Of a stretch of 64,000 nucleotides of DNA, positions 46,721 through 62,927 are shown in pieces (the stretch's first letter is position 1; each line of letters begins with the position of its first letter). The notes beneath the pieces are model-generated. The model worked only from the letters and a program-made list of their open reading frames with translations. It was not told where the DNA came from and ran no database searches. Source of the stretch: an uncultured bacterium (GTDB taxonomy: Bacteria > Auribacterota > UBA3054 > JAPLST01). Made by a program: the position numbers and the translations under genes. The DNA lies in assembly GCA_964397565.1 (NCBI GenBank), contig CAYNJC010000025.1:84-64083 (forward strand), given 5' to 3'.

Positions 46721-46747
46721 TCATTGCCTCTCTACACGAGCCCCCCC

Positions 46748-49700
46748 ATGCGGACTATTCCAATTTGGTTTGCGTTCTTTGCCGCGCTTATTTCGGCACC
46801 TGCGTATGCCAATGCGCTGACGACCGGTCTTTGGTCAACCCACACACAATCCGCCACCCTGCGCGCGGATCTGCTGCTCACCAACCAAGGTCATTTCATC
46901 TGGGCCACTAGCCCGGTGGCGCCACGCAAGCTGGTGGTCGTTGTTTTGGATGGCTATCGGGCCAATAGCGTGTTGCTGTCCGACTCGCCCGGCGTCGTCT
47001 ACAGAGACCCGGAAGACATGGCGCGCGAATACATGCGCGACATGTTCATCAGCAGCCACGGGCACGTGCGCTATGACGCCATCGAGGTGATTGTCAGCTC
47101 CAATGTGCCGACCCGCAAGCTCGGCGCGGCGGAAGGCAGCGTCTACACCAATTTTACGATTGACGCCTACTACGACCGCTGCGTCGACAATCCCACCCAC
47201 GGGCCGCTGACGGTGGACAACGACGGCTCGACTATGGACGCCACCTGCATCACGTCCATGCTGCACCGCCTCGCCATGCGCAGTGGCATCTCGCTGTTTA
47301 CCGCCGCCACGAACGCCGCGGTCCATGAAATTCTCTACTTCGGGCCACACAAAGCCTATCAATGGGAAGCCAGCATGTGTGGCGCCCGTCCGCTCTCGAT
47401 CAACGGCGCGACTGCCACGATTCCCAACAGTCCGCATTTCGTGATCCTGGCCTGCAACACGGGCCGCGGGATTGCGGAGATGATTCACAACAACTTCCAT
47501 CGCTGGGAAAATGTCGCGCCCAACATGTACGCTAATGCGAAATCGGTTGGCTGGAAATACGAATGGTCCTACAAGTGGGACACCACCACGCCCGCGCCCT
47601 ACACCGAACTGCAGCGACAGACATTGTTCACCGACAAGTATAATGCGTGGGAACAGTTCTCCGCCCTCTATCTTGCGCTGCACACGAACATCAACAGTGT
47701 CGGCCAGACACTGGCGGGCATCGGCGATTGCCATTACCCGGTAAATGTGCAGGCCAAGGTCGATGGCGCTTATATTTATAACAGCCCACGTGCCGCCTAT
47801 TCCACGTACCGCTATTGGCGGCAACCGCGGCTTGTGTTGAATTACAACCGCGCGCCCGACCCACGCAATGGCTCGACTACCAATGTTTCATATCTGACAT
47901 GGCGTAACGAAGTGAAGTGGAGCCCCGCTTCTACTGATGACCAACGTTCCTTCATTAACTGGGCGTACTGTGCCATGCCGCACGGCCCAGGCCAACACAA
48001 GAACATCACGGCCCAGGAAGTCCCCGGCGAAACGCCCAACTATGTGCACAACAACTGGTGGGGCTACTTTTCCGATCATGACTATTTTCTCGAGCCCATC
48101 CGCGCGGTGCGCCGCGCCGGCCAGATGGTCAATAGTTTTGCCGAAGCGGCCTGGACCAACAGCACCCTGATTCCTATGACCAACCTGTGGGGCGAACTCG
48201 GGCTGCCGCGCACCGCGCATGATGTGCAGGTGGCCGCCAGCGGCTCGGGTGTTATTGGCGGCACGGGTGTTTTCTTTTGGGGCAGCAGTACGCTGCTCAC
48301 CGCGTCGCCCCCGGCGTATATGTGGATTCACAACACGGCCACCAATTTCTGCACCGACTGGTTCCCGCTGCTGGTGACGAACGCATCGCTCGTGCAGGTT
48401 GTGTTCCAACCCTATCCCGAGAATGCCATCACCAACCCGGCCTCCACCAGCATTACCATGCCGACCGCGGTGGAAACGTACGCGCTGGCCGGTGTCAATG
48501 CCAATGCGCTGGCGGCTTGGTGGACGAATCTCACCACCGGCGCGCACGGGCCGCTCGCGCTCGGCGGCTGGTCCACCACCGTTGCGCTGGTCAAAGGAAA
48601 AAACGTCATCGTGGTCTACGCGACCAATCAATGGTTCTCCACCAGCGCGGGTGTCGAGATTACGCGCCAATCACCCTTGTATGTGGCCAAGTGGGGAAAC
48701 GATGCCAATGGCGGGCGTTCATGGGCAAACGCAAAACTAACCGTCAACAGCGCCTTAACTGCCGCTATCGCCGGGGATATGATCTATGTCGGCACCGGCA
48801 CCTACAGCGGTGCCGGCAATCAAAACTTGAGTTGGTCGGGGCGCAACGGTGTGGCGCTGATTGGTGACAGCCCGGTCAGCACGGTCTTTGTGGTTTCCGG
48901 CGGCAACAATTTCATCAATGGCCTTGAAGGCAAAACCACGCCGACGTTGTTTGCCAGCTTCAAGGTGGACGGCAGCGCCAAGAGTGACGGGCTTGATGGC
49001 GGCGCCAGCTTGTTGTATGCCGGCGACAGCACCGCGCTGAATCTGATCTTCTCGAATCTCTGGCTGAAAGGACGTTATGACGGCAACCAGAGCACCGGCA
49101 GTGCCGGCACCGCCGGACAGGCCAACGGCTCCGGCATTGAACTGAACTGGTATGGCACGAGTGCCGCGTATGCGGGCGAAGTAACTGTGACGCACTGCTT
49201 GTTGGAGCGGTTGGGCCGCGCGTTCTATGCCGATGATGACAGCGGCTCATCGTGCTACACGGTGCGCTTCACGCGCTGTACGTTTGTCAACAACGCCGAT
49301 ACGCGCATGTCGCCGGCCGGCGACATGTCCACGATCTGGCTGCGCGGCAATAACACCGGCCGCTGGCTGATGATGGATCGCTGTGTGATGAGTCATTGCG
49401 CAGGTGACAATACCACCTCCGCAAAATCCGGCATGTATTGCCAGCCGAGCGCAGCGCGTGTCATCCACAACGACAATCTGTTGTACTCAAGCAGCATTGG
49501 TGTTGGCGAGAACAATGTGTATGGATCCGACATCAGCAAACACAGCGGGTATGCTGGAAATTCAGTGACGGTCGACCCGGCGTATGTGACCTACGACGGC
49601 CGGGATTACAGTCTGCAGGTGCTGGCCGGACAAGCCAAGCGCGGGTGGAGCATTGCGGAGGACACGACCCCGCCGACGATCGCTGACACTGCACTCCTGT

Positions 49701-50125
49701 ATCCTGCCGCGTTCAGCCTGGTCGAGCAGGGCATGCCCACCAATGTGCAGTGGAATCCGGCGCTGATCAACGATGACCATGATGGCAGCAATTGCTGGGT
49801 CGTGCAGTTCGATGTGTTGTATAGCAACACCCTGGCGATTGCTCAAGTCATTGCTGCGCCCGTCAGCAACACCGTCGGGCAGCATCCCTGGGTGCCGGCG
49901 GCGCTGGGGCACACCTACCCGGACGAGATGTTTGTGCTGCGCATCGTGGCGCAAGATTCTGCCGGCAACAGCGCCAGTAACATCATGTGGAACAATCGCT
50001 TCTACATCATGCCCGAGCCGGGCGTAGCGTTGCTTGCGGCGCTGCTGTCCCTTATGCTGCCGCGCTGTCGCACGTTTCGTGCACCTATGCGCCGCCGGGC
50101 ACGGAGTGCCGGAGCAACGGAGTAG
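46748..50125 (+). CDS. PEP-CTERM surface protein (unknown N-terminal region plus beta-helix module)
   Basis: Signal peptide IWFAFFAALISAPAYA. The ~600-aa N-terminal part is unrecognised. Module 48680-49651 is paralogous to 43838-44815. C-terminal MPEP-GVALLAALLSLMLP-RCR. Confidence 0.8.
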   Translation: MRTIPIWFAFFAALISAPAYANALTTGLWSTHTQSATLRADLLLTNQGHFIWATSPVAPRKLVVVVLDGYRANSVLLSDSPGVVYRDPEDMAREYMRDMFISSHGHVRYDAIEVIVSSNVPTRKLGAAEGSVYTNFTIDAYYDRCVDNPTHGPLTVDNDGSTMDATCITSMLHRLAMRSGISLFTAATNAAVHEILYFGPHKAYQWEASMCGARPLSINGATATIPNSPHFVILACNTGRGIAEMIHNNFHRWENVAPNMYANAKSVGWKYEWSYKWDTTTPAPYTELQRQTLFTDKYNAWEQFSALYLALHTNINSVGQTLAGIGDCHYPVNVQAKVDGAYIYNSPRAAYSTYRYWRQPRLVLNYNRAPDPRNGSTTNVSYLTWRNEVKWSPASTDDQRSFINWAYCAMPHGPGQHKNITAQEVPGETPNYVHNNWWGYFSDHDYFLEPIRAVRRAGQMVNSFAEAAWTNSTLIPMTNLWGELGLPRTAHDVQVAASGSGVIGGTGVFFWGSSTLLTASPPAYMWIHNTATNFCTDWFPLLVTNASLVQVVFQPYPENAITNPASTSITMPTAVETYALAGVNANALAAWWTNLTTGAHGPLALGGWSTTVALVKGKNVIVVYATNQWFSTSAGVEITRQSPLYVAKWGNDANGGRSWANAKLTVNSALTAAIAGDMIYVGTGTYSGAGNQNLSWSGRNGVALIGDSPVSTVFVVSGGNNFINGLEGKTTPTLFASFKVDGSAKSDGLDGGASLLYAGDSTALNLIFSNLWLKGRYDGNQSTGSAGTAGQANGSGIELNWYGTSAAYAGEVTVTHCLLERLGRAFYADDDSGSSCYTVRFTRCTFVNNADTRMSPAGDMSTIWLRGNNTGRWLMMDRCVMSHCAGDNTTSAKSGMYCQPSAARVIHNDNLLYSSSIGVGENNVYGSDISKHSGYAGNSVTVDPAYVTYDGRDYSLQVLAGQAKRGWSIAEDTTPPTIADTALLYPAAFSLVEQGMPTNVQWNPALINDDHDGSNCWVVQFDVLYSNTLAIAQVIAAPVSNTVGQHPWVPAALGHTYPDEMFVLRIVAQDSAGNSASNIMWNNRFYIMPEPGVALLAALLSLMLPRCRTFRAPMRRRARSAGATE

Positions 50126-53248: not shown

Positions 53249-53662
53249 TTATCGTCGTTTCTTCACCGTGCTGCGTGGCTGGCGGCGTGGATGATACTCG
53301 CCCGGACCATCGGCGGCAATAGACGCGGCTGGCACGCCGACAGGATACACCGACACACCTTCCCGACGCGCGACCATGAGGAGCGGCTGCCACGCTTGCT
53401 CCGCATATTGCCGCACGCCAACGCCAATGGGTTCGATGCGCGTGTCCACGCGCCAGACCATGTGCCACAGCGTGTCCAACGCAGCTTCACGGTCCTTGCC
53501 GTCGAACGCAGGCGAAACCACCACCAGATCAATATCGCTTTCCGGCCGCTGGCATCCGCGCGCACACGAACCGAAGATGACGCCCCGGTCAACCACAATG
53601 CCGGCTTCCGCGACTTTCGCCAGATACTTCCGCACCACGCTCACAATTGCATCATCAACCAT
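53249..53662 (-). CDS. Nucleotidyltransferase-domain protein (MNT-type antitoxin candidate)
   Basis: VIFGSCARGCQRPESDIDLVVVS matches the GSxxRG ... DxD minimal nucleotidyltransferase motif. Confidence 0.8.
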   Translation of the reverse strand: MVDDAIVSVVRKYLAKVAEAGIVVDRGVIFGSCARGCQRPESDIDLVVVSPAFDGKDREAALDTLWHMVWRVDTRIEPIGVGVRQYAEQAWQPLLMVARREGVSVYPVGVPAASIAADGPGEYHPRRQPRSTVKKRR

Positions 53663-54036
53663 CTGAAAACCTCCTTCGCCCTCTTCACGCGCGCCTGTGC
53701 CGAACGAATTGGCACCGGTTGATTCTTTTCGTCAGGATAACGTCCCGCAATATTGAAGCGACCGGTTTCGCCCAGAACGTCTCGCATCCCGGCACTAATC
53801 GTCAGTCCGCTCAGTTCAGCCAAGCGGGTGAGCGAATGGATCTTGGGCGCAACGTCCTTTGTGGCGCGCGTCACATGCGCCTTGAGGACTTTTTCAAGCG
53901 CCAGATGGATGAAGAACAAGCCCTGACGCCCGTGCCCGCTGCGCACCAGCACTTCGCCGCTCGCCAAATCCTCAACGGCGTTGGCGCGCCAGTACCCGAC
54001 CTGCCGCTCAATGTCTTGTGCGCTTATCATATACAT
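53641..54036 (-). CDS. HEPN-domain protein (toxin candidate)
   Basis: HEPN-like helices (FFIHLALEKVLKAHV ... NIAGRYPDE). Overlaps the downstream MNT gene by 22 nt. Confidence 0.7.
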   Translation of the reverse strand: MYMISAQDIERQVGYWRANAVEDLASGEVLVRSGHGRQGLFFIHLALEKVLKAHVTRATKDVAPKIHSLTRLAELSGLTISAGMRDVLGETGRFNIAGRYPDEKNQPVPIRSAQARVKRAKEVFRWLMMQL

Positions 54037-54747: not shown

Positions 54748-55938
54748 TCAACGACGCACACAACGGAAGCCAATACCTTCGTCCGCGCCGTCCGGCGTGT
54801 AGTAGCTGCGGGACGCCACGCGGCAGCGGTTCGAGCTGTAGGCCCAACCGCCGCCGCGCAGCACGCGGTCCGAGCCAGAAGAAGGTCCGCATGTGTCATT
54901 TTGCGTCGCACCCGTATTACTGTACCAACTTGCATCATACCGGTCCCAACACCATTCCCAGACATTGCCGGCCATGTCGTATAAGCCATAGCCATTCGGC
55001 GCGAAATAGCCGACCGGACTGGTGTAGGGCATTGGTTCGTTGGTAAACGCCGGATTGTAGCCGTTCGGACCTAAGTCGTATGCGTAAGCTGTATTACCAT
55101 AATAATTCGCGCGCGAATTCGTGATCGCATTCGCATCGCTCCACGGGAAGCGCATGCCAACCGCGCCGCCGCGCGCCGCTTTCTCCCATTCGGCCTCGGT
55201 CGGCAGGCGATAGCCGTTGGCACTCCAGTTCACCCATTCGTTCGACAGATTTGCTGACCCGCCGCGGTACACCAGGGTCTGGGCCGCATTGGTATAATAG
55301 CATGGCGTCAGGCCTTCTTTCTCACTGCGCGCATTGCACCACTTGACACAGTTGTACCAGTTCACCATCTGCACTGGGTGATTCGGCACTTTGCCAGCGC
55401 CGGGATTTGTAAACGCGTAGCCGTTGTTCGTGGCCCAGATATACACATCCTGCCACTGCTGCGACGTCACCTCGTGTTTGTCCATGAAAAAGGCGCTGAG
55501 GGTCACGGTATGATTCGGTTGTGCAGACGTTCCGTCGTCGGTGAAGTTCGTGCCCATCTGAAACGGGCCGGCCGGGATCAGCGCCATATCATCCATGGCC
55601 GTCACGCGCACGCGGGCCGTGACACCGCTGGCCTCCGGCAGATCGCCCGCCGCAAACCAGACGACCTGCTTATTCGTGCCGGTCGTGACGGTCGCGCCAA
55701 CCGCGCCGCTGAAATTCGTGCAGGCCAATGAATACGTTGCGCCGGCGTTGGTGGAGACATTGATTGCAACCGTATGGATACCACCGCTCGGATTCAGCAG
55801 ATCATAGGCAATGTCCACAATCGCCGCGCCTATCCGTTGGGCGGCCGTGACATTCGTGACCGTCACCGGCCCGGCTACGGCGGTGAACGCGCCCAGCGCA
55901 AGGGACAGAATGATGGCGGTGATTGGTGTTGATTTCAT
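54748..55938 (-). CDS. Secreted FGE-sulfatase (SUMF1/EgtB/PvdO-type) domain protein
   Basis: Signal peptide and an Ig-like N-terminal module, followed by MALIPAGPFQMG ... GYRLPTEAEWEKAARGG ... GNVWEWCWD ... RVLRGGGW. Confidence 0.88.
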   Translation of the reverse strand: MKSTPITAIILSLALGAFTAVAGPVTVTNVTAAQRIGAAIVDIAYDLLNPSGGIHTVAINVSTNAGATYSLACTNFSGAVGATVTTGTNKQVVWFAAGDLPEASGVTARVRVTAMDDMALIPAGPFQMGTNFTDDGTSAQPNHTVTLSAFFMDKHEVTSQQWQDVYIWATNNGYAFTNPGAGKVPNHPVQMVNWYNCVKWCNARSEKEGLTPCYYTNAAQTLVYRGGSANLSNEWVNWSANGYRLPTEAEWEKAARGGAVGMRFPWSDANAITNSRANYYGNTAYAYDLGPNGYNPAFTNEPMPYTSPVGYFAPNGYGLYDMAGNVWEWCWDRYDASWYSNTGATQNDTCGPSSGSDRVLRGGGWAYSSNRCRVASRSYYTPDGADEGIGFRCVRR

Positions 55939-56028: not shown

Positions 56029-56202
56029 TCACTTGCGCCGCAGCAACAGCCAGAGCGGCAGCGCGGCGGCCAGAATCAGCGCCGGTTCCGGCACGGTCGT
56101 GTCCAGCGTAAAATCCGGCGATTCGGCCTGGCCCCAATCGGCCAGACAGGGCAAGGTCCAGATTACCAGAATCGCCAGCAGAATCATTAGTTTTGTGTGC
56201 AT
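56029..56202 (-). CDS. Minimal PEP-CTERM protein (57 aa)
   Basis: GGAG 7 nt upstream of the ATG. MHTKLMILLAILVIWTLPCLA signal peptide, a 15-aa middle part (DWGQAESPDFTLDTT), then VPEP-ALILAAALPLWLLL-RRK. Confidence 0.65.
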   Translation of the reverse strand: MHTKLMILLAILVIWTLPCLADWGQAESPDFTLDTTVPEPALILAAALPLWLLLRRK

Positions 56203-56292
56203 GGTTTTTCTCCCCAATAAATGTTGCTGTACGCAGGTAAAATAGCATAGCACAAACGCCGACAAAAGGCAAAGGCCGGCGCAGGCCGGTCG

Positions 56293-57522
56293 TCACTGCG
56301 GCGTGTCCGCCAGCCAGTGGTGGAGCGTATGCTTGCTGCGCGCGCGCGGCGTCAGTGTCGTGGCGCCGCGCCATAAGTTGAAGACCGTGCGCCCATAGCG
56401 TGCCAGCAACGTCATCAGGCGAACAGGATAGTAGAGGTACAGCACGGGCGAGGTCGCACGTACGCCATAGAGCCGCGCGAGGACTGCCTTGGGTACGCAG
56501 ACGTTGTGCACGAACAGCGAGATTTTCTTGTGCCACACGGCATCGTGCCACGCCACCACATTGGGCGACAGCGCCGCGTCCGCGGTCACATCCGTGAGGA
56601 TTTGTGTCCGGGCGCAGAACAGCACGGGGTCTGGCAAAGAATCTGGGCGCAGCTCGCGCAGAACCTGCGCAGGCACGGCGGCGCCAACCATGTCGTGCGC
56701 CAGTTGCAGCGCCAGAAAGACACCGCGCGTCCAGCGCCACGCCCGCGCGCGCGCCACCACATCCGGCCACGCCAGGCTCTCGTGCTGCCATCGTATGATC
56801 TGCGCAATATCACAGAACGGGCGCAAACCAAACTCGAATTCGTGCTGATAAGCCGCATGGAAACAGGCATAGAGCAGGAGATCCTCGGCGCACAAGCCCA
56901 GGACGCTGTTATCGCCGATGCGCACCGGCACGGCACGCTGCCACAGGTCACCGGGTTCAATCGAATAGACGTGCCGCGGCGCAGTGATGTTCCAGTGCAG
57001 CTCGATCGTGGTGCGGCCTTGCTGCGCGAAGGGCGGCAGATGCAAGTTGCCGTCGAAGAACGCCTGGTCGAGCACATACGGGAACTGCGCCGCGTAGCCG
57101 TGGCGCTCCAGAACGTGCGCGACGCGCGCCAGGTTGCCGCGTGGCACCAGCAGATCAATATCCACCATTTGCCGCGCGCCGAGGTCGTCATAGACGCCAA
57201 AGGCAAGATGTGCGCCTTTGAGCAGCACGACCGGCTGATGGTCGGCGTGGAGCGCGGCCGCGATGTCGTGCAGCTCATTGCGGATGCGAAGATTGCGCAC
57301 CGCGTTTGATGCGTAGAACGTCTGCAACGTGTGCAGGGCGTCACGGGCCGGCGGCCCCGTGATGCCGAGCGCCTTGATGCGCTGGTACACAAGGCCGACC
57401 ACTTGCTGCGCCAGCGCGTCGTGCAGCAGCGCCTGCCACTCGTTTGCTTGCAGGGCTGCCAGGTGCGCGGCCGTCGCACGCTCATTGCCCGGACGCAGGC
57501 AGTCGAGCAGCAGCTCGGTCAT
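56293..57522 (-). CDS. Nucleotidyltransferase family protein (PF14907/NTP_transf_5-like)
   Basis: MVDIDLLVPRG motif, size and context. The ATG at 57522 forms an ATGA overlap with the upstream gene. Confidence 0.55.
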   Translation of the reverse strand: MTELLLDCLRPGNERATAAHLAALQANEWQALLHDALAQQVVGLVYQRIKALGITGPPARDALHTLQTFYASNAVRNLRIRNELHDIAAALHADHQPVVLLKGAHLAFGVYDDLGARQMVDIDLLVPRGNLARVAHVLERHGYAAQFPYVLDQAFFDGNLHLPPFAQQGRTTIELHWNITAPRHVYSIEPGDLWQRAVPVRIGDNSVLGLCAEDLLLYACFHAAYQHEFEFGLRPFCDIAQIIRWQHESLAWPDVVARARAWRWTRGVFLALQLAHDMVGAAVPAQVLRELRPDSLPDPVLFCARTQILTDVTADAALSPNVVAWHDAVWHKKISLFVHNVCVPKAVLARLYGVRATSPVLYLYYPVRLMTLLARYGRTVFNLWRGATTLTPRARSKHTLHHWLADTPQ

Positions 57523-58490
57523 GACAAGCACTTCCGCATGGGGATGCGCCGGCGGCCGTAGTGCTCGACGTCGGCGGCCAGCTCTGCTGCGAGTGCCGCG
57601 ATGGTCACGCGTTCGAAGCCAAGTTTCTCATAGAGGGCGCGGGCGGGACAATTGTCCTCGAAGACGGTCAAGAGCAGCTCCTGGGCGCCGGCAGCCGTGG
57701 CTTGGTCAATCACGTGGCGGACCAATTCTGCGCCAATGCCCATGCCGCGATAGCGTGTTCTGACGGTCAGACTGTAGAGCCAATGGCCGACCCGCGGGGT
57801 ATCGCCGGCGGGGTGCCGCATCAGCCGGACGAAGCCCAGCAACTCTGTGCCGCGCGTGGCGACGTAGTTGGTCAGGCCTGGCGGAGCAGTCGGCGCGGCG
57901 GCGGGCAGGTCACGCGCGGCGGACAGATCGAGCCATGCGGCCACGCGAACAAGCTCCGCGGGCGTGGCTTCTCGGATGACGAAGGTGGGGCGGCAGCGAT
58001 GCAGCAGTGCGCGCAATAATGGGCTGCGCTGCAGGCGCCCGAGCGCGCGGCCGCTGGCGTGCCGCAGCCATCTCGTCAGCGCGCACAGCCACGCGATCAG
58101 CGGTGCACAGCATGTGCAGACCAGGCCGGCGAACCACCAAGCGCCGCGGTCGAGTGTGCGGCTGCGCCCGGCGTGGGTGGCGTGCGTCACCGTGCCGAGC
58201 AGGTCGCGCGGCGCGAGCGGCCCCGCGCGGTGAGTCTGCGCGTCACCGCGCAGCCAGACGCCCTCGCCACGCACACGCACCACGCGATGGACCACGTACC
58301 GTGCGGGCGCGGACTCGGCCAGCACAATGTCGCCCCGCGCCGGCGCAGCACACTGGGGCGCCAGCTCGATGACATCACCGTCGTGAATGATCGGCCACAT
58401 GCTGTTGCCGTTGACCGTCATGCGCACGCATTGCCCGCGTGCCAGCGCCGCGCGGATGACCGGCATCATGGCATGGCCGGGGATCGTCAT
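57519..58490 (-). CDS. S24/S26-type (signal-peptidase-like) peptidase - TM - GNAT acetyltransferase fusion
   Basis: GNSMWP nucleophile motif, HRVVRV where bacterial SPase I has KR, then LRGD. A hydrophobic segment WWFAGLVCTCCAPLIAWLCAL. GNAT motif A YRGMGIGAELVRHVIDQA ... ALYEKLGFE. ATGA overlap with the kinase gene. Confidence 0.6.
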   Translation of the reverse strand: MTIPGHAMMPVIRAALARGQCVRMTVNGNSMWPIIHDGDVIELAPQCAAPARGDIVLAESAPARYVVHRVVRVRGEGVWLRGDAQTHRAGPLAPRDLLGTVTHATHAGRSRTLDRGAWWFAGLVCTCCAPLIAWLCALTRWLRHASGRALGRLQRSPLLRALLHRCRPTFVIREATPAELVRVAAWLDLSAARDLPAAAPTAPPGLTNYVATRGTELLGFVRLMRHPAGDTPRVGHWLYSLTVRTRYRGMGIGAELVRHVIDQATAAGAQELLLTVFEDNCPARALYEKLGFERVTIAALAAELAADVEHYGRRRIPMRKCLS

Positions 58491-59389
58491 AGCGCCGCAC
58501 GCACGAGCGGAATGACGGCCTTCTCCGCGCGGCAGCGCAGGCGGAAGACGGGCGTGCGCGCCAAAATCGTGTTGAGATTGGTCAGCGCGCGTTGCAGCAG
58601 CGGCGCATCCCAATACGGCAGAAATGTGCGCGCCAGCAGCAGCGGCGCGGCCGCCGTCGGTGCGAGTTGTTCGATCCGGTTCTCCGGCGCTTGTTCCAGC
58701 AGAATGATGGCACGCAGTGGCGCGGCATGATTGCGGGCAATATTGGCCGTGCCACCCCAGGGCGTGCCGTAGCACATGGCGGTGTGTGCGTTGACGCGTA
58801 CGGCGATGCGGTCGTCGTTCATGGCGATCACGCCCGGCTCCTGGGTCCACAGGCACGCGTGTGTGCTCTTGCCGGCGCCGGAATGCCCGACGAAGACAAG
58901 GCCCTGGCCGTGGTCGTCAATGCCGGACGCGTGAAAAACCAGACCATCGGTGAAGAGCACGGCGGTGCGCAGCAGCAGTTCGCCCGCGCCGATGTTAAGG
59001 ACGCTCTGCCACGTCGTGCCGTGCGGTCGCCCGGCCGGGACGCTGCGCTGTTCGGTCAGCGTCAGATCGTTCCACGCGGCATTGGCGCGCAGGACGCTGT
59101 GCATCTGCGCCGGCTGCTTGTCATCATGATACGTAATCGCGGCGTAGAACTCGGCGCCGTCGCGATACATGCGCCAGATCGAGCCCGGGTCGTACACCAA
59201 GGTGCCGCGCGGCTCGGGCGTGTCCGCGCTTTCCTCCCAGTGCAGCACGACGCGCGCCAGCGGCTGTGGCGTCAGGCCGAAGAATGGGCCGAGGCGTTGT
59301 TCGATCCCCAATTCGGCGGCGGACAGCGGGCTGTGCAGCTCGATCACAATGTCGGCGATCGAAATCGGTATGTTATGTTGGTTGGCCAT
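58487..59389 (-). CDS. HPr kinase/phosphorylase-related kinase
   Basis: P-loop LVFVGHSGAGKSTHACLW followed by NDD, as in the HprK C-terminal domain. Start is ATG at 59389 or TTG at 59413, and both overlap the 3' end of the rSAM gene. Confidence 0.7.
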   Translation of the reverse strand: MANQHNIPISIADIVIELHSPLSAAELGIEQRLGPFFGLTPQPLARVVLHWEESADTPEPRGTLVYDPGSIWRMYRDGAEFYAAITYHDDKQPAQMHSVLRANAAWNDLTLTEQRSVPAGRPHGTTWQSVLNIGAGELLLRTAVLFTDGLVFHASGIDDHGQGLVFVGHSGAGKSTHACLWTQEPGVIAMNDDRIAVRVNAHTAMCYGTPWGGTANIARNHAAPLRAIILLEQAPENRIEQLAPTAAAPLLLARTFLPYWDAPLLQRALTNLNTILARTPVFRLRCRAEKAVIPLVRAAL

Positions 59390-60443
59390 GCTGTTCCTTG
59401 CGCGCCCAGGCAACTTCGCACAGATACGGCACCGGTTCGTTCAACGTATGCGTCTCGAGCAACGACCAAGCCGGGCAGCGCGGGCAGTAGACGCGCGCGC
59501 CGCAGTTCCGGCAGGCATCAGCCAGCGGCGGTGCCGTGTCAACATAGCGCTGCGTCTGTTCCCATGCCGCGCGAAAGCCAACCTCCAGCGGGCGCGCGGC
59601 CGGCAGCGGCAAGTCCATGCAGACGTTCATCTCCCCGCGCGGATTGATGACAAACGAAGCCGCGCCAGCCTGACAGTGGAAATTGCGATCATGGGCCGGC
59701 GCGACTGCGTGCCGCGCCGTTTCAGTCCACCCTCTGGCCGAGATTTGGTCGGTCGCTTCGAGTGCGACACATGCGGACGGTGACAGGCGGCAGTGCTCCA
59801 CCTCGGAACACGCGCCATCGCGGCGCTGGGACAGCAGCCAGCCGCCCGAGAACGGCACACCCCAGTTGCGCGCCATCTGCCGCATTGCATCCAGTTCGCC
59901 CACGTTTTGCCGCGTGACCGTCGTCTTGAGCCCGAGCGGCACACGCCGCCGCACGAGCGCCTCAATCCCGGCGCAGCAGCGCGCGTAACTGCCGGCGACA
60001 CCGGTGATCGCCTCGTAGGTCGCCGTAGTGGCGCCGTAGAGCGTGATCTCCGTCCGGCTCGGCGGCGCTTCCGCCAGGCGTTGCGCCAGCGCCTCGCTGA
60101 CCAACGTCCCATTGCTGAACAGCGTCAGCAGCAGACCCATTCTGGTCAGCGGCGTGTAAATCTCAAAAAAATCGGGCCGCAGGAGAACTTCGCCGCCCGT
60201 CAGCAGCAGAAAGAGCATGCCCTCGTCAACGGCCGCGCGCGCCAGTGTCAGCCATGCCGCCGCCGTCAGCTCCTCCGCGCGCACCGTGGCGTCGCCGCCA
60301 GATTGGCTGATGTAGCACATGCGGCAGGCCAAGTTGCAGCGCGCCGTGAGTTCAAAGGTGCCATTGACGGGCTGGCGGCGCGCGGCGGCGCGCGCGTGCA
60401 GTTCACGCACCAGATCGCCATACTCGCACGGCAGGCTGCTCAT
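59373..60443 (-). CDS. Radical SAM/SPASM domain peptide-modifying enzyme
   Basis: CNLACRMC (CX3CX2C) near the N-terminus. C-terminal SPASM cysteines (CQAG ... NVC ... CRNCGARVYCPRC). ATGA overlap with the PqqD-like gene. Confidence 0.85.
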   Translation of the reverse strand: MSSLPCEYGDLVRELHARAAARRQPVNGTFELTARCNLACRMCYISQSGGDATVRAEELTAAAWLTLARAAVDEGMLFLLLTGGEVLLRPDFFEIYTPLTRMGLLLTLFSNGTLVSEALAQRLAEAPPSRTEITLYGATTATYEAITGVAGSYARCCAGIEALVRRRVPLGLKTTVTRQNVGELDAMRQMARNWGVPFSGGWLLSQRRDGACSEVEHCRLSPSACVALEATDQISARGWTETARHAVAPAHDRNFHCQAGAASFVINPRGEMNVCMDLPLPAARPLEVGFRAAWEQTQRYVDTAPPLADACRNCGARVYCPRCPAWSLLETHTLNEPVPYLCEVAWARKEQHGQPT

Positions 60444-60706
60444 CCGTCAACCATGCCCAGCGGCGCGATCTCATCGAGAAAGGTTTGCACATCGGCGCGG
60501 GCGCGCACCGGCTCGACGGCAAACCGTTCGACCACGATGGCTGTCAGTTCATCCAGCGTGCGCTCTTCTGCCAGCAGCTCCCACACACAGCAGGCCGTGT
60601 CGTTTAGGATCACCAAGCCATTCATCTCCATAACCTGGGCGCCCAGCGGCGTCAGCAGAGCGACGCCTCCAACATTCTGTAGCATGAATTTCTCACTGCG
60701 TTTCAT
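60440..60706 (-). CDS. PqqD-family protein (RiPP recognition element candidate)
   Basis: 88 aa. NDTACCVWELLAEERTLDELTAIVVERFAVEPVRARADVQTFLDEI is a typical PqqD-like pattern. The ATG at 60706 lies just downstream of the attenuator. Confidence 0.8.
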   Translation of the reverse strand: MKRSEKFMLQNVGGVALLTPLGAQVMEMNGLVILNDTACCVWELLAEERTLDELTAIVVERFAVEPVRARADVQTFLDEIAPLGMVDG

Positions 60707-60751
60707 CTTCTTGCCTTGGTTGGAACCCGACGAAACATCAGTCCGGGCCAC

Positions 60752-60923: not shown

Positions 60924-61088
60924 TTACGAGCCACTCGGCCCGTTTGAGCATGTCCTCGGGTCGGTCTTCAAACAGCCCAGCAATCTCTCCTCCAGCTTAA
61001 GCGGGACAAAGGTTGCCTTGGGCGCCTCATAGGGCTGCTTGTGCGATGCCTGCGCCGCAGTGGTCACGGTGATGTGCTGCTTTTCCAT
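60924..61088 (-). CDS. Candidate precursor peptide (54 aa), not in the ORF track
   Basis: GGAGAG-ttagc-ATG. Sequence MEKQHITVTTAAQASHKQPYEAPKATFVPLKLEERLLGCLKTDPRTCSNGPSGS*. Lies directly upstream of PqqD and the rSAM gene on the same strand, with a consensus promoter at 61146-61174. Confidence 0.7.
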   Translation of the reverse strand: MEKQHITVTTAAQASHKQPYEAPKATFVPLKLEERLLGCLKTDPRTCSNGPSGS

Positions 61089-61145: not shown

Positions 61146-61174
61146 AGTATACCAAGAACGGCCACTTTTGTCAA
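61146..61174 (-). promoter_or_regulatory. Sigma70-type promoter TTGACA-N17-TATACT (peptide operon)
   Basis: On the minus strand: ttgaca (61174-61169), exact 17-nt spacer, tatact (61151-61146). About 55 nt of 5' UTR before the peptide ATG. Confidence 0.65.
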
Positions 61175-61266: not shown

Positions 61267-61621
61267 GGGGGCGCACTGGGTTCGACTGGAGTCGATGCTG
61301 TACCGTGGCGTGCCGCGGACGTCCGTTGGCCGCGTTACCAATCGGGCACAAACAACAAACGCGAACGAAGAACTCGCACTTGCTGCGTAATTTAACGTAG
61401 CCGCTCGGTCGTCGTGCTGCCTGTCAGGGCGACATGAGCGACGATTACAGGCTGGCGCGGATGATCGGCTGGGAGCCATCCGCGTGAGACACTTCCCGGC
61501 TCGACCGGCGGTGGCCTGCTGATGGGCAACCAATGGTTTAAACTCAATCCACCAGCTACGCGCGTAGAAGCGGTACGGATAGATGTTCAGGACGCGGGTT
61601 CAACTCCCGCCGCCTCCACCA
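61267..61621 (+). ncRNA. ssrA: Transfer-messenger RNA
   Basis: The 5' GGGGGCG pairs with the 3' CGCCUCC (G3-U wobble) followed by ACCA. T-arm GGACGCGGGTTCAACTCCCGCC. Tag reading frame at 61346-61390: gca caa aca aca aac gcg aac gaa gaa ctc gca ctt gct gcg taa, encoding AQTTNANEELALAA*. Confidence 0.92.
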
Positions 61622-61769: not shown

Positions 61770-62927
61770 ATGGCTGACCAGCTTCACATCCACGTCGTCG
61801 AGACCGCGCGTGACCGCGCCGCATTCCTCGATCTTCCTTGGCGCATCTATGCCGGCTCGCCGTGCTGGGTGCCGCCACTCCGGCGCATCATCCGTCACCA
61901 ACTTGATTTTCGCGCGCACCCCTTTTGGCAGCATGCCGAGGGCTGCCTGTTCATCGCCTGCCGCGGCGCCGCAGTGCTCGGCCGCATATGCGCGCAGATT
62001 GACCACGCTTACATTGCGCAATGGCACGAGCCGGTCGGCTCGTTCGGTTTCTTTGAATGTGTGGATGAGGTCGCCGTGGCGCGCGCGCTGGTGCAGGCAG
62101 CGGCGGCCTGGCTGCAGCAGCGCGGCATGCGCGTGCTGCGCGGCCCGATGAGCCCCTCGTGTCATGGCGAATGGGGCCTGCTGATCGAGGGCTTCGCGCG
62201 GCCGCCGACCTTACTGATGCCGTACAACCCGCCCTACTATCGCGCCCTGCTGGAGGCCTGCGGCTTGCGCCCGGTCAAGACGGTGCTGGCCTATGAAAAA
62301 ACGCAGGACAGTCAGAGCCCGGCGGTACTCGCACGCATCGCCGCGCGGCTCCTGCGCAATTCACACGTGCGCATCGAGTGCCTGCGCAAGGCCGAGCTGA
62401 AGCACAGGGCGGAAACTGTGCGCCTGCTGTACAATGCCACCTGGAGCGCGCAGTGGGGTTTTACGCCGCTCAGCGCGGGTGAAATGAACGAGTTTCTCGA
62501 CGCGGTGCGCTTCTTCGGCCGCGAAGAGCTGGCGTGGCTGGCCTTTTATGACGACCAACCAGCGGGGCTGTGCATCACCCTGCCCGATATCAATGAAATC
62601 CTGCGCGATGCCAACGGACGACTCGGCCTGCGCACGCTCTGGCGCCTGCTATTTCAGCAGCGGCGCATCACGGGCTGCCGCACGATGTTGGTCGGGTTTT
62701 TGCCGCAATTCCGGCGCACCGGTCTGCCGGCTTTGCTCTATCACATATCCGAGCCGTATATCCGCGCGCACTTCCAGCGGGCCGAGTTCTCGTGGATTTT
62801 GGAGGATAATCTGCCGATGCAAATGCTGATCGGCGCCATCGGTGCGACGGTCAGTAAACGCTACCAGCTCTTTGAATTGCAGCTGCCTGTATCACCGCCG
62901 ATTCCGCTCTTCGATGAACATCGCTGA
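61770..62927 (+). CDS. Hypothetical protein, probable GNAT-like N-acetyltransferase family
   Basis: The N-terminal pattern RAAFLDLPWRIYAGSPCWVPPL ... resembles a widespread uncharacterised acyltransferase-like family. Assignment is from memory only. Confidence 0.45.
   Translation: MADQLHIHVVETARDRAAFLDLPWRIYAGSPCWVPPLRRIIRHQLDFRAHPFWQHAEGCLFIACRGAAVLGRICAQIDHAYIAQWHEPVGSFGFFECVDEVAVARALVQAAAAWLQQRGMRVLRGPMSPSCHGEWGLLIEGFARPPTLLMPYNPPYYRALLEACGLRPVKTVLAYEKTQDSQSPAVLARIAARLLRNSHVRIECLRKAELKHRAETVRLLYNATWSAQWGFTPLSAGEMNEFLDAVRFFGREELAWLAFYDDQPAGLCITLPDINEILRDANGRLGLRTLWRLLFQQRRITGCRTMLVGFLPQFRRTGLPALLYHISEPYIRAHFQRAEFSWILEDNLPMQMLIGAIGATVSKRYQLFELQLPVSPPIPLFDEHR

Follow-up and report, generated by a model that had tools for sequence, protein, structure and literature searches.

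Can a single protein remove the leader of a ribosomal peptide and acetylate the product that is thereby released? This question is raised by a gene at 57519..58490 on the reverse strand of a 64,000-nucleotide stretch of contig CAYNJC010000025.1 (assembly GCA_964397565.1, an uncultured bacterium of the Auribacterota), hereafter the window. Its 323-residue product, P0001, fuses a peptidase domain resembling that of the leader peptidase LppS to a GNAT acetyltransferase domain, an architecture shared by about 40 homologous clusters. A preliminary description of the window had suggested a signal-peptidase-like Ser/His protease, connected through a transmembrane (TM) segment to a complete GNAT, with a combined role as leader peptidase and N-acetyltransferase in the adjacent peptide pathway. 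Our analysis leads to a related reading that we favour, albeit with considerable reserve: P0001 would be a bifunctional tailoring enzyme in a radical-SAM pathway for a ribosomally synthesised and post-translationally modified peptide (RiPP), one that would remove the leader and, in a coupled step, acetylate the peptide so released. Three aspects had been overlooked before, namely that this type of peptidase was published in 2026, that the hydrophobic segment has the nature of a tail, and that an alanine, Ala89, takes the place of a catalytic acid.

Peptidase domain and its relation to LppS

The frame of P0001 is stop-free. Its start codon (ATG, 58490) shares the sequence ATGA with the TGA stop of the kinase-like gene upstream, and homologues begin at this same residue; a longer GTG-initiated frame is therefore not the gene. 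Residues 1-112 (58155..58490, reverse strand as for all parts of the gene) form the peptidase domain, recognised with Pfam, AlphaFold2 (AF2), Foldseek and hhalign, in which an alpha helix at the N-terminus (aa 5-17) leads into a beta-barrel of clan SF. A linker (aa 113-170, 57981..58154) connects it to the GNAT domain (aa 171-323, 57522..57980), which was delimited through Pfam, homologues and nearest structures. Congruent with the complete GNAT described earlier, Acetyltransf_1 (PF00583) matches aa 203-292 with an E value of 1e-17 (64.9 bits, cut-off 20.7), and the acetyl-CoA motif R248-G-M-G-I-G253 (57732-57749), of the R/Q-x-x-G-x-G/A type, is intact and almost invariant among homologues.

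The peptidase domain carries G28-N-S30-M-W-P33, the GNSMWP nucleophile motif that had been pointed out, and H68-R-V-V-R-V73. When the domain was searched as a single sequence against the PDB, one weak match was obtained, bacterial signal peptidase I 4me8 (E 0.18). A profile built from 22 homologous N-domains (A2) and run against the sequences of the entire PDB recovered SEC11C (E 7.7e-5, 25.6 bits), SEC11A (E 2.1e-4), signal peptidase I 4me8 (E 7.2e-4, 22.5 bits) and LexA of M. tuberculosis (E 1.2e-3, 21.7 bits). In the resulting alignment to SEC11A, where the chain numbering is +1 relative to the residue numbers quoted here, S30 is placed on S56 (SGSM), H68-R69 on H96 (VHRV), G82-D83 on D116 (KGDNN) and position 89 on D122, while in that to 4me8 H68 falls on the catalytic Lys (AKR). 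Ser30 (codon 58401..58403) is thus the predicted nucleophile and His68 (58287..58289) the predicted general base, as previously proposed from the HRVVRV motif. Aligning 188 family members with hmmalign, and counting non-gap rows only, we found S30 in 185/185, H68 in 184/184, R69 in 183/184 and D83 in 183/184, a conservation that far exceeds chance.

General similarity is less informative. With 32.4 bits at aa 9-88, Peptidase_S24 (PF00717) exceeds its gathering cut-off of 23.3, while all NCBIfam matches to P0001 are sub-threshold (bacterial and archaeal signal peptidase I, Ni-SOD maturation protease); the archaeal model TIGR02228 (sigpep_I_arch) yields 28.3 bits (cut-off 51.85) and the bacterial TIGR02227 (sigpep_I_bact) 28.4 (cut-off 47). 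As a full-length P0001 model returned GNATs only in Foldseek, the peptidase domain was modelled separately, yielding an AF2 model with a pLDDT of 87.7 and a pTM of 0.82. Its top matches are LexA, SipA, SEC11C and SpsB, with TM-scores of 0.52-0.67 and LexA C-domains leading by E value, and the fold resembles LexA, lambda cI, UmuD', SipA, SEC11 and SpsB about equally. Structure prediction, one of the checks suggested at the outset, hence supports a clan-SF fold but does not discriminate S24 from S26. With the S26B, S26A and S24 scores within approximately 4 bits of each other and the fold matches equal, the label 'S26B-like' depends on the catalytic residues and not on overall similarity. On these residues, the domain has the Ser/His arrangement of the SipW/endoplasmic reticulum (ER) type, in agreement with the S26B kinship put forward earlier, and is not a LexA-type autoprotease.

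A closer relative is found among RiPP enzymes. LppS, reported in May 2026 (Popov et al., Nat Commun 2026, PMC13381572), acts as leader peptidase for linear polyphosphorylated peptides (LPPs) and is described as SipW-like, or 'archaeal-type SpI'. In the Bacillota clusters that encode it, LppS is accompanied by a discrete RiPP recognition element (RRE; LppB), a kinase of the HprK-like type (LppK), an NTP transferase (LppN) and an exporter. Deletion of lppS abolishes leader removal, cleavage in a cell-free system requires LppB, and the S29A, H68A and D93A mutants showed no cleavage (PMC13381572). The alpha1 helix of LppS touches the RRE/leader beta-sheet, as supported by an AlphaFold3 model and mutagenesis; the leader motif is YxxPxVLxHQxIxFET with the cut after T-1, and LppK phosphorylates Ser3 of the core (PMC13381572). 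Using the LppS sequence WP_029196374.1 from Supplementary Data 1 of that paper, we obtained a BLASTP match to aa 8-109 of P0001 (E 2e-9, 25% identity over 107 columns), an hhalign probability of 98.8% to the A2 profile (E 1.3e-16), and 65.2 bits with the A2 hidden Markov model (HMM; E 4e-13 even when scaled to a library of 1.84 billion), compared to 25.6 bits for SEC11C. In this alignment S30 corresponds to S29, H68 to H68, D83 to D87 and A89 to D93. A helix predicted at aa 5-17 and conserved among homologues may be the counterpart of the docking helix alpha1. LppS, rather than SEC11 or LexA, is accordingly the closest characterised relative of the P0001 peptidase domain, as judged by these alignments. 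The genetic setting is also reminiscent, with PqqD, a ScmC/HprK-related protein and NTP_transf_5 encoded in the P0001 operon and PYEAP present in the precursor leader. The text of the LppS paper makes no mention of GNAT, acetylation or radical SAM, and Acetyltransf_1 is present in just 9/126 neighbourhoods of its data (PMC13381572).

Peptide operon and a proposed maturation route

P0001 is encoded by the fifth of six co-directional genes, all on the reverse strand. The first (60924..61088) specifies a 54-aa precursor with ...PYEAPKATFVPLKLEERL in the leader and the core LGCLKTDPRTCSNGPSGS, with Ser at the end. It is followed by a PqqD-family RRE (60440..60751; HMM matches), which by analogy to LppB is the predicted partner presenting the leader to the peptidase, a radical SAM/SPASM maturase (59373..60443; Pfam and NCBIfam), and a ScmC/HprK-related kinase-like protein (58487..59413; NCBIfam), homologues of which carry PF27840. 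Downstream of the fusion gene, an NTP_transf_5 (PF14907) nucleotidyltransferase (56293..57531; Pfam E 5.5e-63) completes the operon. The unit is flanked by a promoter-like site upstream of the precursor gene (61146..61174, 11/12 consensus positions) and by a terminator-like hairpin just past the NTP_transf_5 stop (56276..56289), the latter a weak signal as terminator-like sites are about as many as chance predicts.

The first five genes occur in identical order in seven other loci (L001, L004/L005, L006, L008, L009, L011 and L023), with the same precursor family recurring throughout (in L004 for the second), while NTP_transf_5 and an ABC exporter are optional among the cassettes (L006, L011, L023). 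Nine precursors share the pattern ...[PS]Y-x-x-P-x-x-x-F-V-P-L-K-[LM]-E-E-R-L-x-x-C-x-K, succeeded by a variable, Cys-containing core that is always Ser-terminated. L009 (2368-3779) holds three tandem precursor genes upstream of one maturation cassette, with near-identical leaders (…PRRPYAPPTA[TI]FVPLKLEERL) and differing Cys-containing cores, all of them ending in Ser. In a more distant subgroup (P0031, P0034, P0035, P0038), the fusion gene follows one for PqqD in a neighbourhood with several radical SAM genes. Such a distant peptidase-GNAT fusion is seen in L002 (1387-11715) and L003, with the PqqD gene before it and four or five radical SAM genes around; in this variant locus one radical SAM is fused to a ScmC-like domain, and a 71-aa Cys-rich precursor is also Ser-terminated.

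Stand-alone homologues of the peptidase domain display a related environment. In 13 genomes of the same phylum they adjoin a radical SAM and a ScmC-like gene, often with NTP_transf_5 and PqqD close by, and no separate GNAT gene related to that of P0001 was detected in these 13 loci with the family HMM, a search that is weak for divergent GNATs. Two stand-alone-peptidase cassettes from this phylum contain candidate precursors, L024 9398-9577 (…LPYEKP…EEVLGIGCK…S) and L025 3862-4056 (…SYVKP…AGRTCC…S), both of which retain the Y-x-x-P of the leader and end in Ser.

LppS and LppB provide, by homology, the outline of a maturation route. The YxxP leader would be bound by the PqqD protein, and the complex would dock on the P0001 helix at aa 5-17. 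Ser30 and His68 would then cut within the stretch from the invariant KLEERL to the first Cys, probably near the end of KLEERL. Aligned by the Pro that lies five residues upstream of the LppA site (after the T of P-V-R-F-E-T), the cut would follow the second E of P-L-K-L-E-E, before R, so that -3 is hydrophobic and -2 is Glu, as they are in LppA; counted from the Tyr instead, it would lie between R and L of E-E-R-L. The tethered GNAT, which would be positioned beside the scissile bond as it is fused to the leader peptidase, would acetylate the released core with acetyl-CoA, the fresh alpha-amine being the likeliest target and the Lys of C-x-K an alternative. The radical SAM/SPASM protein presumably cross-links the core Cys residues, while the invariant Ser at the C-terminus is presumably decorated by the ScmC-like kinase and NTP_transf_5, which would be similar to paeninodin and pseudomycoidin (PMC8498205). 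Every step of this pathway would be cytoplasmic. Taken together, the LppS homology and the conserved precursor, PqqD, radical SAM and kinase cassette lend strong indirect support to the leader-peptidase role suggested before.

Points against this route and alternative readings

Several observations weigh against the coupled cleavage and acetylation proposed here. No exporter, MsbA-like included, is encoded in the P0001 operon. The target of LppK, core Ser3, has no counterpart in these precursors, so the pathway is not a straightforward LPP. The residue before the first precursor Cys varies (G, M, A, V, R), and there is as a consequence no clear cleavage-site rule; a signal-peptidase rule, requiring small residues at both -3 and -1 relative to the first Cys, was considered and dropped as -1 can be G, A, M, V or R. 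The structural neighbours of the GNAT domain are generic. Finally, Ala89 (GCG, 58224..58226) aligns with SEC11A Asp122 and LppS Asp93, the latter being the residue whose D93A mutant gave no cleavage in vitro (PMC13381572), and the P0001 copy may consequently be only weakly active or inactive.

Ala89 gives rise to the first alternative, in which the peptidase is dead or crippled and merely a docking module for the GNAT, with the leader cut by another protease or never. We deem this unlikely, yet deserving of serious attention. The hmmalign alignment has Asp or Glu at position 89 in 167/184 relatives (91%) and Ala in only 3/184; Glu stands at this place in P0002, the orthologue from the same genus (81% identity), and in P0004 (72%), a single base change, GAG to GCG, would explain the alanine, and the N-terminal helix expected to dock the RRE is conserved. 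However, Ser30, His68, Arg69 and Gly82-Asp83 are all intact. Moreover, position 89 is not acidic in 17/184 relatives (about 9%), and the aligned homologues of the fusion keep every other motif in all cases but one (P0035, with Asn at Asp83), suggesting that the Ser/His dyad may be enough. The GCG codon furthermore stems from a single metagenome-assembled genome (MAG), and no second LppS-type peptidase was found in the source genome. A more specific version, in which the fusion is a 'cleave-and-cap' machine whose leader peptidase passes the freshly cut N-terminus straight to the covalently tethered N-alpha-acetyltransferase, and in which the protease of this lineage has lost its catalytic acid and now is purely an RRE/leader docking adaptor for the acetyltransferase, strikes us as more doubtful still. 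If true, an enzyme-to-adaptor transition would have been caught within one genus, and the Ala89 variant represents a natural experiment on the need for the third triad residue.

The second alternative retains the peptidase as proposed and concerns the acetylation, which would instead be directed to the Lys of C-x-K or serve self-protection by modifying the mature product. Indeed, this Lys, two residues past the first Cys, is kept in 9/9 fusion-cassette precursors, and the cluster GNAT AlbT acetylates a Lys of the lasso peptide albusnodin (PMC8498205). Conversely, the L024 precursor, from a stand-alone-peptidase cassette with no detectable GNAT, also has Cys-Lys, although as adjacent C-K and not C-x-K, and the Lys is for this reason not tied to the GNAT. 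The fusion to the peptidase sets the GNAT by the scissile bond, and its nearest structures in Foldseek, RimI, NAA60 and Ard1, are N-alpha-acetyltransferases, which is weak evidence. We therefore regard Lys acetylation or self-protection as improbable, if plausible enough to be kept in mind, and acetylation of the fresh alpha-amine as the likelier outcome.

A third alternative hinges on the hydrophobic segment, and is considerably harder to uphold: P0001 would be a true SipW/archaeal-type membrane signal peptidase for secreted proteins, such as a neighbouring PEP-CTERM protein, with the GNAT in the cytoplasm past a real TM helix. The segment at aa 120-138 has a Kyte-Doolittle 19-residue mean of 2.12, weak sub-threshold matches to sigpep_I_arch and sigpep_I_bact were noted above, and the gene of a small PEP-CTERM protein is located just downstream. 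The preliminary description was hence right that the segment is hydrophobic, but a TM helix is unsupported as a feature of the family. The consensus among homologues, W-R-L-A-G-x-x-W-x-[RS]-C-x-P-x-G-x-W-L-L-R-L..RR, includes two to three Arg (at 119, 127 and 137), and the tails of 118 stand-alone relatives have a median maximum hydropathy of 1.1, with 20 reaching 1.6 and three reaching 2.0; that of LppS is 1.32. AF2 predicts helices at 116-127, 129-154 and 157-165 (pLDDT 74-83), the linker thus comprising a hydrophobic helix-Pro-helix (aa 116-141) and a subsequent basic helix. As the same post-domain hydrophobic helix-Pro-helix is present in LppS (...YVWGQIVLAFPMISQLLRGYLNRRE), it belongs to the peptidase family and is not an invention of the linker. 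The segment is best described as the conserved C-terminal tail of the LppS type and not as a demonstrable or conserved TM helix; it is probably amphipathic and possibly dips into the membrane surface.

The membrane reading meets further obstacles. An N-terminal TM segment occurs in only 1/118 stand-alone relatives, and there is no hydrophobic stretch before Ser30 in P0001. A true single-pass TM helix would separate the two domains, leaving the peptidase on the outer side of the membrane and the GNAT, which depends on acetyl-CoA, within the cell, a poor fit with the cytoplasmic chemistry of radical SAM and kinase proteins, and LppS works in a membrane-free cell-free system (PMC13381572), with which a TM helix also agrees poorly. 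The signal peptidase models score 28 bits against cut-offs of 47 and 52, whereas 65 bits link the family to the cytoplasmic RiPP peptidase LppS and only 26 to SEC11, and RiPP-cassette synteny is strict in the loci examined, which represent several phyla. By homology, LppS-type domains are probably soluble or only peripherally membrane-associated and devoid of an N-terminal anchor, and with the mostly non-TM tails this fits a cytoplasmic enzyme.

The least credible reading, a LexA/UmuD-like self-cleaving S24 domain that controls the GNAT through autoproteolysis, draws on the best Pfam model, the LexA C-domains heading the Foldseek ranking and the LexA-like size of the domain, but we set this alternative, already raised in the preliminary description, aside as the base is His where known S24 autoproteases use Lys, no DNA-binding domain is present, a putative RRE-docking helix precedes the core in place of a conserved Ala-Gly/Cys-Gly self-cleavage loop, and the closest characterised relative, LppS, works in trans on a peptide.

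Distribution, neighbouring genes and known systems

The A2 profile matches 31,385 representative proteins (50%-identity clusters) at E <=1e-3 and 8,976 at E <=1e-10, the latter a set to which LppS would belong. Domain architecture was surveyed for the best 147 representatives, of which 143 have G-x-S-M-x-P and then HR. Most are short (108 of 130-200 aa, 118 of <=230 aa), and the length and motif of the GNAT fusion are found in about 12-18. NTP_transf_5 is fused C-terminally to the peptidase domain in five (P0050, P0061, P0070, P0083, P0169), and in one (P0192) a PqqD domain is placed N-terminally; the domain thus travels with peptide-recognition and tailoring modules. In a word-indexed search, the peptidase-GNAT architecture turned up in about 40 clusters (90% identity), which are all metagenomic or from MAGs and bear no annotation beyond 'GNAT family N-acetyltransferase', 'RimI-like' or 'signal peptidase I'. 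A search for related loci with the whole of P0001 retrieved a same-genus MAG only. A FastTree phylogeny of the 112-column domain gave 34 state changes over 57 fused and 126 unfused rows, a figure that we distrust and from which no conclusion on the number of fusion origins is drawn, the alignment being short, the sampling fusion-biased and some of the 'stand-alone' metagenomic proteins possibly truncated.

No description of a peptidase-GNAT fusion was found in the literature searched, in keeping with the novelty ascribed to it earlier. The conserved fusion and its radical-SAM cassette are hence an undescribed variant, while the peptidase type has been known since 2026. SipW-like Ser/His peptidases have been recognised as RiPP leader peptidases only since that year, and only from LPP clusters of Bacillota; the present data extend the family to radical-SAM cassettes of uncultured Gram-negative lineages, with approximately 9,000 clusters at E <=1e-10, and demonstrate a modular domain with GNAT, PF14907 nucleotidyltransferase or PqqD RRE partners. 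A peptidase-acetyltransferase fusion would remove the leader and cap the product in one compact enzyme, of potential use in RiPP engineering, and the fusion offers a genome-mining handle for an uncharacterised family of radical-SAM and phospho-tailored peptides.

Other features of the window surround the operon. A transfer-messenger RNA gene (61267-61621, forward strand; tag …ANEELALAA) diverges from the promoter-like site that precedes the operon, and beyond it a 385-aa open reading frame (ORF; 61770-62927, forward) has no Pfam or NCBIfam match at E 0.01. On the other side, a 78-aa ORF (56029-56265, reverse) ends in VPEP, a hydrophobic helix and RRK and is PEP-CTERM-like in translation, as is a 1133-aa protein (46724-50125, forward) ending in MPEPGVALLAALLSLMLPRCR; with two such sorting signals, an exosortase system is probable in the organism. 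Downstream of the operon lies an FGE-sulfatase/GldK-like protein (54748-55938, reverse; PF03781, E 7.7e-56) with a signal-peptide-like N-terminus. Two overlapping small ORFs (53249-54036, reverse), minimal nucleotidyltransferase-like (…GSCARG…DIDLVVV…) and HEPN-type in their translations, constitute a candidate MNT/HEPN toxin-antitoxin pair.

Compared with known systems, P0001 shares with the S26B peptidases (SEC11A/C, yeast Sec11 and B. subtilis SipW) the Ser/His/Asp boxes SM-x-P, HR and GD and TM-scores of 0.60-0.67. The similarity is nonetheless only about 25 bits and below the TIGR02228 cut-off, and P0001 is without the N-terminal anchor, the complex subunits and the extracytoplasmic location of these enzymes; their substrates are signal peptides, whereas an RRE-presented RiPP leader is predicted here. 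LexA, UmuD and lambda cI (MEROPS S24) are alike in their compact beta-barrel of approximately 100 aa, in the best Pfam model and in the top Foldseek matches by E value, but perform self-cleavage with Ser/Lys, in contrast to the invariant His and the peptide-maturation context of the present family.

As for the acetyltransferase, the RiPP GNATs HaaN, microviridin MdnD and albusnodin AlbT, as well as RimI, share the GNAT fold and the acetyl-CoA motif, RimI-like proteins being the nearest structures. The scores are nevertheless low (HaaN 18.8 bits vs a cut-off of 250, RimI 48 vs 86), and none of these enzymes is peptidase-fused. The cassette recalls SynChlorMet (SCM) in its combination of PqqD (the PqqD-like ScmD in SCM), radical SAM/SPASM and ScmC, with the kinase-like neighbour matching ScmC (TIGR04249) and the radical SAM matching ScmE/ScmF sub-threshold, although all scores are far under the equivalog cut-offs. 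The SCM cassette is not known to include a peptidase/GNAT fusion.

LppS is alike in its homologous domain, N-terminal helix (alpha1 in LppS, predicted in P0001), Ser at ~29/30, His68, GD, hydrophobic helix-Pro-helix tail and missing N-terminal anchor, and in both cases neighbouring genes specify a discrete PqqD-type RRE, a kinase resembling HprK, a nucleotidyltransferase and a YxxP-leader precursor. LppS is however a 151-aa stand-alone protein, while the tail of P0001 runs on into the GNAT, and its Asp93 is replaced by Ala89. The LPP clusters, defined by the core set LppA/K/B/S/D/N, have no radical SAM or other cross-linking enzyme, linear products and a kinase acting on core Ser3, as opposed to the radical SAM/SPASM protein, invariant C-terminal Ser and at least two Cys of the present system, and they belong to Bacillota, in contrast to an uncultured Gram-negative-type MAG of 61% GC. 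Finally, the lasso peptide proteins B1 and B2 provide a parallel in organisation: an RRE presents the leader to a peptidase that is often fused to a tailoring enzyme, and HprK-like kinases and NTP_transf_5 are found, as exemplified by the B2-PF14907 nucleotidyltransferase fusion, PadeK of paeninodin and PsmK/PsmN of pseudomycoidin (PMC8498205). B2 differs in being a transglutaminase-fold Cys protease, whereas here the partner is a GNAT and there is no lasso cyclase; nevertheless, the NTP_transf_5 and PqqD fusions of LppS-type domains parallel the B2-nucleotidyltransferase and B1-B2 fusions of the lasso pathways.

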